Source of the DNA: Escherichia coli
GTDB lineage: Bacteria > Pseudomonadota > Gammaproteobacteria > Enterobacterales > Enterobacteriaceae
NCBI RefSeq assembly: GCF_003334355.1
Contig: NZ_QOWP01000022.1
Reading direction: 5' to 3' (one strand)
DNA: 64,000 bases
Positions 11,333-56,160 of this stretch are shown one piece after another. The notes beneath the pieces were generated by a model. It worked only from the letters and a program-made list of their open reading frames with translations. It did no database searches and was not told the DNA's origin. How positions within the stretch are numbered: the first letter of the stretch is position 1; every line of letters starts with the position of its first letter. A program made the position numbers and the translations under genes.

Positions 11333-11788
11333 TCAGGCCTCCCGGCTACGAGCACACATCATCGTTGCTTCGCAAACTACTTTACCATCGACCAGAGCAA
11401 CCCCTTTAAAACGGGTCAGGCCGCGGCGCGTTTTTTCGAAAGTGACTTCCATGATCATTTGATCGCCAGGCACGACCGGGCGCTTGAAGCGCGCTTCGTC
11501 AATACCAGCGAAGTAGTACAGCTCACCCGGTTCCAGTTTTCCTACGCTTTTAAACGCCAGAATACCTGTTGCCTGTGCCATTGCTTCCAGAATCAGCACA
11601 CCCGGGAAAATCGGTTTTCCAGGGAAATGGCCCTGGAAGAATGGCTCATTGACAGAGACATTTTTTACTGCGCGCAGAAAACGACCTTCTTCAAAATCCA
11701 GCACGCGATCCACCAGTAAGAACGGGAAACGGTGCGGCAGAAGTTCTAAAATCTCTTCAATCTGCAGAGTATGAGTGTTAGTAGTCAA
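11333..11788 (-). CDS. fabZ: 3-hydroxyacyl-ACP dehydratase FabZ (TTG start)
   Basis: ORF contains the FabZ sequence [28 protein letters not shown]...; start placed at TTG codon at 11786-11788 giving 151 aa. Confidence 0.9.
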
Positions 11789-11892
11789 GATACTCTTCCT
11801 GTCAAAATATAAGAAACGACAATAATAACACGGCCTGCCGCAATCGTAAGAATGAGACAGGCCGTAAAGTTTGGCGAACAAAAGATGGAACG

Positions 11893-49159: not shown

Positions 49160-49256
49160 GCTTTTTCTCCGCAATATTCAGGCGCAAAAGCCCGATTTTC
49201 TGTTCTTCTGTTACAAGACAGAAGAAGATATCTCTCAAAATTTGTGCTCGATCGGT

Positions 49257-49345
49257 CCCCTCTCCCTTGAGGGAGAGGGTTAGGGTGAGGGTGAACGTGC
49301 GCGCTGATGCCCTCACCCCGGCCCTCTCCCACAGGGAGAGGGCGA
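49257..49345. repeat. two GC-rich repeat units in inverted orientation (boxC-like) between mrcB and hrpB
   Basis: ccctctcccttgagggagagggttagggtgaggg and its near-identical inverse ccctcaccccggccctctcccacagggagagggc. Confidence 0.6.
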
Positions 49346-49354
49346 AAACCAACC

Positions 49355-51784
49355 TTACGAATACTTTTTCGTCCGTCGCGTCGGTGCAGTGTTTGCCGGG
49401 TCGTCCGGCCAGACATGTTTGGGATAACGCCCTTTCATCTCTTTTTGCACCTCACGGTACGCTCCTTTCCAGAAGGCGCTCAAATCTCGTGTGATTTGTA
49501 ATGGCCTTTGGGCAGGGGAAAGCAACTCCAGCACCAGCGGCACGCGCCCCTGGGCGATCGTCGGATTGGTGGCCTCACCAAACATCTCCTGCATTCTCAC
49601 CGCCAGCGCGGGCGGGTTATCTTCATGATAACGAATGGCGATCCGGCTTCCCGTCGGCACAGTGTAATGCGCAGGCAATTCACTATCCAGACGTTGCTGC
49701 ATTCCCCAATCAAGTAATCCGCGTAGTGCCTGATAAATGTCGAGTGATTTCAGGCCGCGTAGTGAATGCACGCCGGTCATATGTGGCAGCAGCCACGTTT
49801 CCAGCGTCGCCAACAAACTTTCATTATCAACCGCAGGCCAGTCATATTCCGGCAACCACTTTGCGGCGCATAACAAACGCAAGCGTAGCTGTTCCGCTTC
49901 CGCCGTCCAGTTGAGCACGCTTAAACCTTTATCACGGATGCCATTAAGCATCGCCTGATGCAACTCGTCTTCTGACGGTTTCGCCAACGTCTGCACTTTC
50001 ACCGTCAACTGACCGATTTGCAGCCGACGCCAGGCTTTCAGCGTACCTTGCGCGTCATCCCATTCCACGGTGTCAGATTGCTGCACCAGCTGCGGACAGC
50101 GTCGCACTAATTCATCAATATCGACCGGTAGCGCCAGTAAAATCCGCGCATCCGGCGAGGCGCTGCCCTGCAATAATAACGGTGCGATCAACCATTCGTG
50201 GCGGCTTAGCGCGTCGTCGGCATCGAGCATCGCTCCCATGCCGTTTGCCAGTTGATAGCGTCCATCTTGCCCACGGCGGCGAGCAATGCGATCGGCAAAC
50301 GCCCCGGCAAGTAGCGGCGCGATAAGCGAACTGTCTGCCTCACCGCCGCGTACGTTTAAGCGTTTTAACAGTTGCTGACTACGTTGCTGCCAGGCTGGTT
50401 GATTGCGCGAAAACGCCACGCCCAGGTCACTATTGCCCATCCGTGGCGGCTCTTCGAGAATGGCGGCAATTTTTGCCGCGGTAGCAGCTTCGTCGTCGTT
50501 CTTCGCGCTAACCAGCATTGCCGCTAAACGCGGATCGTTACCCAGCGCTGCCATTTTTTGCCCTTGCGCACTAAGCCGTTCACCGTCCAGCGCCCCCAGC
50601 ATCCGTAACAGGCGTTTCGCGGCCAGTAGATTCACCGTTGGCGGTTGATCCAGCCAGCTCATCTGCGTCGGATCGCTGCATCCCCATTGCAGTAATTCCA
50701 TCAGCAAACCGGAAAGATCGCTTTGTAATATTTCCGGTTCACTTTGCGCCGCGGCGCGTTCTGCTTGTTCCTTGGCGATTAAATGCAGGCAGATACCCGG
50801 CTCCAGACGCCCGGCGCGCCCGGCACGCTGCGTCATGGATGCCTGGCTAACGCGTTGAGTAATCAGCCGCGTAAGCCCCGTGCGCGGATCAAAGCGCGCC
50901 ACACGCTCCTGGGCACAATCCACCACCAGACGAATACCTTCGATGGTTAAACTGGTTTCAGCAATATTGGTCGCCAGCACCACTTTGCGCATCCCTTGCG
51001 GTGCCGGGAGGATCGCTTTTCGCTGATCGTTCAGCGACAACGCGCCATACAGCGGGCAGAGCAACACATCACTGCCGATGCGCGAAGCCAGTTGTTCCTG
51101 CACACGCTGAATTTCTCCGACGCCAGTTAAAAATAACAGTAATGATCCACTTTCCTGACGCAGCATTTCGGCGGTGGCAACCGCGACGGCTTCGTCAAAA
51201 CGCTGATGCGCGGGCAGCGGTAAATAACGGCGTTCAACCGGAAACGAGCGCCCTTCTGAGATGACGACGGGCGCTTCTGGCAGCATTTGCTGCAAGCGGT
51301 CGTTGTCCAGCGTAGCCGACATAATCAGCAGTTTAAGGTCATCACGCAGACCTTGTTGCACATCGAGTAACAGCGCCAACGCCAAATCCGCCTGCAAGCT
51401 GCGCTCATGAAATTCATCAAGGATCACCAGTCCAACACCGCTCAGTTCCGGGTCACGCTGGATCATCCGCGTCAGCACGCCTTCGGTAACTACTTCCAGG
51501 CGGGTATTCGGCCCGACGCAGTTTTGCGCACGCATCCGGTAGCCAACGGTATCGCCTGGCTTTTCGTTAAGCAGCTCCGCCAGCCGTTGCGCGACGTTAC
51601 GCGCCGCCAGACGACGCGGCTCCAGCAGGATAATTTTTCCGTTAATGCCGGGATGCGCCAGCAATTGCAGCGGCAGCCAGGTTGATTTCCCGGCCCCGGT
51701 CGGCGCACTTAATAATACCTGCGGCGCACAATCGAGAGCGGTAAGTAATTCAGGTAAGACGGCAGCAACGGGCAACGATGACAC
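49355..51784 (-). CDS. hrpB: ATP-dependent RNA helicase HrpB (GTG start)
   Basis: DEAH-box helicase motifs (GAGKST, DEFHER); start placed at GTG giving MSSLPVAAVLPELL (809 aa). Confidence 0.9.
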   Translation of the reverse strand: MSSLPVAAVLPELLTALDCAPQVLLSAPTGAGKSTWLPLQLLAHPGINGKIILLEPRRLAARNVAQRLAELLNEKPGDTVGYRMRAQNCVGPNTRLEVVTEGVLTRMIQRDPELSGVGLVILDEFHERSLQADLALALLLDVQQGLRDDLKLLIMSATLDNDRLQQMLPEAPVVISEGRSFPVERRYLPLPAHQRFDEAVAVATAEMLRQESGSLLLFLTGVGEIQRVQEQLASRIGSDVLLCPLYGALSLNDQRKAILPAPQGMRKVVLATNIAETSLTIEGIRLVVDCAQERVARFDPRTGLTRLITQRVSQASMTQRAGRAGRLEPGICLHLIAKEQAERAAAQSEPEILQSDLSGLLMELLQWGCSDPTQMSWLDQPPTVNLLAAKRLLRMLGALDGERLSAQGQKMAALGNDPRLAAMLVSAKNDDEAATAAKIAAILEEPPRMGNSDLGVAFSRNQPAWQQRSQQLLKRLNVRGGEADSSLIAPLLAGAFADRIARRRGQDGRYQLANGMGAMLDADDALSRHEWLIAPLLLQGSASPDARILLALPVDIDELVRRCPQLVQQSDTVEWDDAQGTLKAWRRLQIGQLTVKVQTLAKPSEDELHQAMLNGIRDKGLSVLNWTAEAEQLRLRLLCAAKWLPEYDWPAVDNESLLATLETWLLPHMTGVHSLRGLKSLDIYQALRGLLDWGMQQRLDSELPAHYTVPTGSRIAIRYHEDNPPALAVRMQEMFGEATNPTIAQGRVPLVLELLSPAQRPLQITRDLSAFWKGAYREVQKEMKGRYPKHVWPDDPANTAPTRRTKKYS

Positions 51785-51857
51785 AAAACGCTCCAGAGGG
51801 TTAACATTCTTCGCGCCACATTGTAGCATCGCGGTAATTCATAACCGAGTGCCTCAC

Positions 51858-54762: not shown

Positions 54763-56160
54763 ATTTTTACCCGAGTCGCTAATTTTTGCCGCAAGGTGCT
54801 AAGCCGCGAGGAAAGCGAGGCTGAACAGGCAGTCGCCCGTCCACAGGTGACGGTGATCCCGCGTGAGCAGCATGCTATTTCCCGCAAAGATATCAGTGAA
54901 AATGCCCTGAAGGTAATGTACAGGCTCAATAAAGCGGGATACGAAGCCTGGCTGGTTGGCGGCGGCGTGCGCGACCTGTTACTTGGCAAAAAGCCGAAAG
55001 ACTTTGACGTAACCACTAACGCCACGCCTGAGCAGGTGCGCAAACTGTTCCGTAACTGCCGCCTGGTGGGTCGCCGTTTCCGTCTGGCTCATGTGATGTT
55101 TGGCCCGGAGATTATCGAAGTTGCGACCTTCCGTGGACACCACGAAGGTAACGTCAGCGACCGCACGACCTCCCAACGCGGGCAAAACGGCATGTTGCTG
55201 CGCGACAACATTTTCGGCTCCATCGAAGAAGACGCCCAGCGCCGCGATTTCACTATCAACAGCCTGTATTACAGCGTAGCGGATTTTACCGTCCGTGATT
55301 ACGTTGGCGGTATGAAGGATCTGAAGGACGGCGTTATCCGTCTGATTGGTAACCCGGAAACGCGCTACCGTGAAGATCCGGTACGTATGCTGCGCGCGGT
55401 ACGTTTTGCCGCCAAATTGGGTATGCGCATCAGCCCGGAAACCGCAGAACCGATCCCTCGCCTCGCTACCCTGCTGAACGATATCCCACCGGCACGCCTG
55501 TTTGAAGAATCGCTTAAACTGCTACAAGCGGGCTACGGTTACGAAACCTATAAGCTGCTGTGTGAATATCATCTGTTCCAGCCGCTGTTCCCGACCATTA
55601 CCCGCTACTTCACGGAAAATGGCGACAGCCCGATGGAGCGGATCATTGAACAGGTGCTGAAGAATACCGATACGCGTATCCATAACGATATGCGCGTGAA
55701 CCCGGCGTTCCTGTTTGCCGCCATGTTCTGGTACCCACTGCTGGAGACGGCACAGAAGATCGCCCAGGAAAGCGGCCTGACCTATCACGACGCTTTCGCG
55801 CTGGCGATGAACGACGTGCTGGACGAAGCCTGCCGTTCACTGGCAATCCCGAAACGTCTGACGACGTTAACCCGCGATATCTGGCAGTTGCAGTTGCGTA
55901 TGTCCCGACGTCAGGGTAAACGTGCATGGAAACTGCTGGAGCATCCTAAGTTCCGTGCGGCTTATGACCTGTTGGCCTTGCGAGCTGAAGTTGAACGTAA
56001 CGCTGAACTGCAGCGTCTGGTGAAATGGTGGGGTGAGTTCCAGGTTTCCGCGCCACCAGACCAAAAAGGGATGCTCAACGAGCTGGATGAAGAACCGTCA
56101 CCGCGTCGTCGTACTCGTCGTCCACGCAAACGCGCACCACGTCGTGAGGGTACCGCATGA
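54763..56160 (+). CDS. pcnB: poly(A) polymerase I (non-AUG start)
   Basis: Recognised PcnB; no ATG or GTG precedes the conserved N-terminus [19 protein letters not shown]; start placed at the ATT codon at 54763 (465 aa). Confidence 0.88.

Follow-up and report, generated by a model that had tools for sequence, protein, structure and literature searches.

The closest described counterparts of the two starts considered here are the fabZ and hrpB genes of Escherichia coli K-12 themselves. K-12 fabZ (b0180, NP_414722.1) opens with the same TTG at the same position, encodes the same 151-aa product, and lies in the same gene order, with nothing substantive differing. Similarly, K-12 hrpB (b0148, NP_414690.4) shares with the copy studied here the GTG start, its position, the 809-aa product, the divergent thpR gene, and the 73-nt spacer; a few strain-level substitutions separate the two (e.g., TCA instead of the K-12 TCG at codon 2). 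Both non-ATG starts are already known, and databases annotate exactly these codons; in a 2024 study of cdsA, TTG is likewise given as the initiation codon of fabZ (PMC11448367). Two neighbors of fabZ and hrpB, cdsA (TTG) and pcnB (ATT), likewise open with weak start codons, but the several functional start codons of cdsA and the truly noncanonical AUU of pcnB are features of those genes. Start codons of E. coli are distributed as 83% AUG, 14% GUG, and 3% UUG, initiation at GUG and UUG amounts to 10 to 100% of that at AUG, and only two AUU starts have been confirmed in this species, that of pcnB among them (bioRxiv 10.1101/063800).

Here, we analyzed a 64,000-nt stretch of DNA (the window) from the E. 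coli chromosome that runs colinear, in reverse orientation, with the region at ∼149.9 to 213.9 kb of K-12 MG1655. Coordinates were converted as window position p = 213889 minus the K-12 coordinate. This offset breaks down at ∼58000 to 62500, in the yad fimbrial region, where the starts of htrE, yadM, yadL, and yadK could not be mapped, which indicates indels or divergence of the yad fimbrial operon with respect to K-12. The curated K-12 CDS (fabZ, 202101 to 202556; hrpB, 162105 to 164534) place the starts at window positions 11788 and 51784, and the RefSeq CDS of four E. coli genomes begin at the equivalents of the same two positions. The coding sequences, their annotated starts, and the upstream codons that compete with them are as follows.

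11333 to 11788, minus strand: fabZ coding sequence, 151 aa plus stop, 3-hydroxyacyl-ACP dehydratase; matches the RefSeq and K-12 CDS exactly
49355 to 51784, minus strand: hrpB coding sequence, 809 aa plus stop, DExH-box RNA-dependent NTPase, as in the RefSeq and K-12 CDS
11786 to 11788, minus strand: TTG initiation codon of fabZ, followed by ACT ACT AAC ACT CAT (TTNTH...)
51782 to 51784, minus strand: GTG initiation codon of hrpB, followed by TCA TCG TTG CCC (SSLP...; SSLPVAAVLPELL)
11879 to 11881, minus strand: upstream in-frame TTG that opens a mechanical 182-aa ORF (11333 to 11881), judged unused
51827 to 51829, minus strand: upstream in-frame ATG that opens a mechanical 824-aa ORF (49355 to 51829), judged not to be a start

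The original prediction had assigned a TTG start to fabZ and a GTG start to hrpB. Both codons occur on the minus strand where it had placed them, and they are the ones used in the curated K-12 and RefSeq annotations. It had also described the two longer ORFs as initiated by ATG. Both ORFs exist with the extents that it gave, and the description is right for hrpB, whose longer ORF opens with ATG at 51829, but not for fabZ, whose longer ORF opens with TTG at 11881. We conclude that TTG in fabZ and GTG in hrpB are almost certainly genuine near-cognate initiation codons and that the longer ORFs are artefacts of mechanically extending the frame to the nearest upstream stop. The upstream alternatives lie 93 nt (fabZ TTG) and 45 nt (hrpB ATG) 5′ of the annotated starts. 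The fabZ frame contains no in-frame ATG from the upstream stop (11908 to 11906) to FabZ residue 70, so only a non-ATG codon can initiate a FabZ whose N-terminal half is intact.

The identities of both products were supported by homology and gene context. The FabZ translation matched PDB 6n3p (E = 6e-99) with all aligned residues identical, its homologues carry the precomputed annotation PF07977 (FabA-like hot-dog fold), and the gene is flanked in the window as expected for FabZ, in the order lpxD-fabZ-lpxA. The first 185 residues of HrpB matched PDB 6eud and 6heg (E ∼ 1e-114) from residue 1 onward, and RefSeq names the gene hrpB. Homology to the FabZ and HrpB structures begins at the in-frame TTG and GTG, respectively, and all three structures begin at the annotated N termini; the crystallized constructs are recombinant and annotation based and, as such, show only that the annotated proteins fold, rather than providing independent evidence for the starts. 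Among 5,426 complete E. coli genomes, 5,424 show at least 99% identity over the 401 nt surrounding the fabZ start; over the hrpB start region, identity across E. coli genomes ranges from 90 to 100%.

Translation from the annotated codons would follow the usual bacterial route. Initiator fMet-tRNA reads both UUG and GUG, as a rule with lower efficiency than AUG. The 30S subunit would be positioned by a Shine-Dalgarno (SD) sequence 6 to 7 nt upstream, AGGAAGAG in fabZ and GGAG in hrpB, and fMet-tRNA would decode UUG or GUG as residue 1, yielding a FabZ of 151 aa and an HrpB of 809 aa. The HrpB N terminus expected from the GTG at 51784 is SSLPVAAVLPELLTALDCAPQVLLSAPTGAGK, with or without the initiator Met, and the stretches upstream of both starts are noncoding leader or promoter DNA. 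Purified FabZ was reportedly subjected to N-terminal sequencing by Mohan et al. in 1994. The predicted ribosome-binding sites are as follows.

11793 to 11800, minus strand: SD of fabZ, AGGAAGAG, within the nearly invariant block GACAGGAAGAGTAT; anti-SD duplex of −4.3 kcal/mol
51791 to 51794, minus strand: SD of hrpB, GGAG, 6 nt 5′ of the GTG; anti-SD duplex of −6.2 kcal/mol

A comparison of ribosome-binding sites ahead of each candidate start, as the original prediction had proposed, came out in favor of the annotated codons: complementarity to the anti-SD 5 to 10 nt upstream was stronger at the proposed starts than at the upstream alternatives in both genes. SD pairing at the hrpB GTG ranked within the top 5% of start-like triplets of the whole window. 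Neither upstream codon is preceded by an SD; the fabZ TTG at 11881 has an anti-SD duplex of only −0.7 kcal/mol, and the hrpB ATG at 51829 reaches a median value of −2.4 kcal/mol. These sites are also conserved, with GGAG invariant in an alignment of 79 hrpB sequences and the fabZ block GACAGGAAGAGTAT retained in 11 to 13 of 13 loci.

The 13 fabZ loci compared came from the window, Klebsiella, Yersinia, Pectobacterium, Photorhabdus, Xenorhabdus, Leminorella, Limnobaculum, a Sodalis-like genome, Pantoea Mhis, Blochmannia, and two more genomes. TTG is the start in 11 of them, in every case behind the nearly invariant block. In the remaining two, Photorhabdus and Xenorhabdus, the position of the TTG is occupied by a TAG stop codon with an ATG directly after it, served by the same SD. 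Moreover, in Leminorella, Pantoea Mhis, and Blochmannia, no codon other than this TTG could serve as the fabZ start once the upstream stop is passed, and the upstream TTG of E. coli is absent from, or located elsewhere in, other genera. If the annotated TTG were an internal Leu codon, synonymous variation would be expected at this site; none was observed, while the Leu codons 8, 14, 16, and 17 vary synonymously among the 13 loci. Some automatic gene callers do predict extended FabZ proteins, but the N-terminal peptides of these over-extended public calls are unrelated to one another except for DRKSIL, encoded by the SD block together with the TTG.

For hrpB, 80 loci were collected from Escherichia, Citrobacter, Enterobacter, Klebsiella, Kosakonia, and Cedecea through to Erwinia, Pantoea, and Mixta (79 of them in the alignment). 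The first codon is GTG in all but two of the loci (78 GTG, 2 TTG), and neither ATG nor the synonyms GTA, GTC, and GTT occur there. This lack of synonymous Val codons, which would be expected of an internal residue, stands against free variation at Val6 (GTT, 42; GTC, 32; GTA, 4) and at Val9, where all four Val codons occur. About 25 of the 80 loci have an in-frame stop 1 to 12 codons upstream of the GTG with no alternative start in between, and in three Enterobacter loci TAA lies immediately 5′ of the GTG. Indels between the promoter and GGAG are of one nucleotide, not multiples of three, and shift the frame among genera. In Escherichia, Citrobacter, and some Enterobacter, the upstream hrpB ATG shares the frame of the gene, but many genera have it in a different frame or have a stop between it and the GTG. 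The extensions of both genes are thus broken by stops and frame-shifting indels in other genera, their peptides are not conserved, and the sequence upstream of either start evolves as noncoding DNA. The hrpB start reads TTGTG (51784 to 51786, minus strand), with a TTG in another frame sharing one base with the GTG. Out-of-frame initiation is reported to be possible in AUGUG and GUGUG contexts (PMC9841429), and neither UUGUG nor hrpB appears in that paper. The overlap at hrpB is probably due to chance, because species differ in the bases that precede the GTG.

Conservation of the upstream hrpB ATG has a separate explanation in the promoter of the gene.

51820 to 51828, minus strand: extended −10 promoter of hrpB, TGcTACAAT, with ATGCTACAATG at least 90% conserved among 79 loci

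The ATG overlaps this element, its TG being the TG of the extended −10. Judged from the alignment, the ATG is conserved because it lies within the promoter motif ATGCTACAATG of hrpB, and not as a start. In the available part of the Cappable-seq supplement (PMC4782308), the hrpB transcription start site (TSS) maps to K-12 position 162077 (plus strand), which corresponds to window position 51812. This TSS lies 7 nt 3′ of the −10 hexamer, 28 nt 5′ of the GTG, and 17 nt 3′ of the ATG, which places the ATG upstream of the main hrpB TSS. K-12 coordinates below ∼257 kb are not known to differ between U00096.2 and U00096.3, and the fit of this TSS to the −10 element agrees with that. The available part of the same data set also lists a further TSS at K-12 161665 (plus strand; window ∼52224, minus strand), antisense to thpR, ∼440 nt 5′ of hrpB, with a score similar to that of the hrpB TSS. 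It may give rise to an antisense RNA or to an hrpB transcript with a long leader; if it reads through, this transcript would include the upstream ATG, which is a point against our main explanation. The opposite strand of the hrpB-thpR spacer contains TTAACA-17-TAGCAT (51801 to 51829, plus strand), a possible thpR promoter whose −10 overlaps the extended −10 of hrpB. On the basis of this arrangement, the divergent thpR and hrpB promoters may share the conserved ATGCTACAATG core.

Two alternatives to exclusive use of the annotated codons were weighed. By analogy with cdsA, which has several functional start codons after its TTG, additional near-cognate codons downstream of the annotated starts (CTG8 and ATT10 in fabZ; TTG4 in hrpB) might yield minor N-terminal proteoforms or serve as a backup. 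This would add to initiation at the annotated TTG and GTG rather than replace it. The cdsA study indeed notes noncanonical initiation codons after the TTG of fabZ (PMC11448367), and codon 4 of E. coli hrpB is a TTG within reach of the same SD. Nonetheless, GGAG lies 15 nt from that codon, which is poor spacing, and residues 2 to 7 of FabZ are conserved at the protein level; overall, we regard such accessory starts as improbable. As the true hrpB start, the TTG at codon 4 was rejected, since Leu4 is encoded by TTG, TTA, CTG, or CTT across the loci, with TTA or CTT in 28 of 80. Still less credible is that the longer ORFs are real, with HrpB starting at the ATG at 51829 (824 aa) and/or FabZ at the TTG at 11881 (182 aa) and the annotated starts being internal Val and Leu codons: both ORFs are open and a transcript from K-12 161665 could carry the hrpB ATG, but the SD, codon-usage, stop, and indel patterns described above, together with the promoter origin of the ATG and the position of the main hrpB TSS, speak against it. 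The claim of the original prediction that the extensions do not belong to the real proteins is therefore backed by annotation, SD strength, the 80 hrpB and 13 fabZ loci, and the hrpB TSS.

Tetracycline profiling (TetRP), in which each annotated start was set against NUG codons in the same frame up to 60 nt away, is weak evidence for the annotated TTG and GTG: fabZ and hrpB are absent from its 154 genes with alternative sites, but this range takes in the hrpB ATG and leaves out the upstream fabZ TTG, and expression of hrpB may be low. Neither gene is mentioned in the supplements of TRAINSPOTTER and of the Salmonella riboproteogenomics study. Both fabZ and hrpB are misannotated if the longest ORF or the first ATG is taken as the rule, the database starts being correct, and the significance of the result is mostly limited to annotation quality.

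In the matching K-12 region, curated annotation assigns non-ATG starts to 10 of 55 CDS, namely, 7 GTG (htrE, hrpB, fhuB, frr, ispU, skp, and lpxA), 2 TTG (cdsA and fabZ), and 1 ATT (pcnB). Besides those of fabZ and hrpB, the following minus-strand starts in the window are annotated as non-ATG.

42427, minus strand: GTG start of fhuB
21017, minus strand: GTG start of frr
18986, minus strand: GTG start of ispU
18212, minus strand: TTG start of cdsA
13407, minus strand: GTG start of skp
11329, minus strand: GTG start of lpxA

The original prediction had thus singled out two of the ∼9 to 10 non-ATG starts in the window, and the starts of fabZ and hrpB are ordinary, about one gene in six here beginning likewise. 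Three of the four genes in the skp-lpxD-fabZ-lpxA run start with GTG or TTG. Far more unusual is the ATT start of pcnB (54763 to 54765, plus strand), which is the same as in K-12.

The spacer between lpxD and fabZ contains two further elements.

11822 to 11830, minus strand: TGtTATTAT, extended −10-like element in the lpxD-fabZ spacer, with a TSS at 11815
11830 to 11865, minus strand: hairpin in the lpxD-fabZ spacer with arms CGGCCTG (11864 to 11858) and CAGGCCG (11837 to 11831)

The strongest spacer TSS in the accessible Cappable-seq entries (PMC4782308 supplement) is K-12 202074, i.e., window position 11815, for which TGtTATTAT is the putative promoter. The same entries include a weak TSS at K-12 202048 and another at 202092 (window 11841 and 11797, minus strand). 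Other genera carry TGaTAnnAT six nucleotides further on than the E. coli element, and the overall pattern suggests a conserved internal promoter for fabZ-lpxA-lpxB in this spacer. A simple promoter scan, which requires a −35 match, missed this extended −10 promoter as well as that of hrpB. In our reading, the weak 202048 TSS follows a putative sigma-E-like AAACTT-15-TCTTA; the main text of the sigma-E regulon paper does not mention fabZ or lpxD. Operon read-through transcripts from lpxD include the upstream fabZ TTG, which, like the distal hrpB TSS, counts against the main explanation. The hairpin comprises 9 pairs according to the alignment and RNAalifold, and its sequence, with a variable loop, is conserved in 11 Enterobacterales genera. 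RNAalifold revealed no compensatory pairs in it, just one-sided G-U changes, and for this reason we do not claim an RNA structure. An Rfam scan of the spacer returned no family and a single chance subthreshold snoRNA match. Possible roles of the element are attenuation, processing, or protein binding.

Initiation at TTG and GTG may also bear on expression levels. Replacement of the cdsA TTG by ATG results in lethal overproduction upon induction (PMC11448367), which supports the idea that weak starts cap expression, and we infer that the weaker start codons keep translation of fabZ and hrpB below the ATG level. Given the general weak selection toward AUG (PMC5622118), the persistence of GTG or TTG in hrpB and of TTG in fabZ suggests, from codon conservation, selection to cap expression against that trend. 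The TTG of the essential gene fabZ is of special interest for possible selection limiting expression. We tentatively raise the possibility, although it is rather doubtful, that the weak starts are actively maintained and not merely tolerated, and that the fabZ TTG might act together with the conserved hairpin and internal promoter of the spacer as one module, tuning FabZ abundance relative to that of LpxD, LpxA, and LpxC. If so, this FabZ module would set the balance between phospholipid and lipid A synthesis, and a TTG-to-ATG change in fabZ would be deleterious, as in cdsA. Finally, at the other end of hrpB, the mrcB-hrpB spacer (49175 to 49354) contains several short ORFs that overlap one another on the two strands and whose translations are repetitive, and it looks like an intergenic repeat element.
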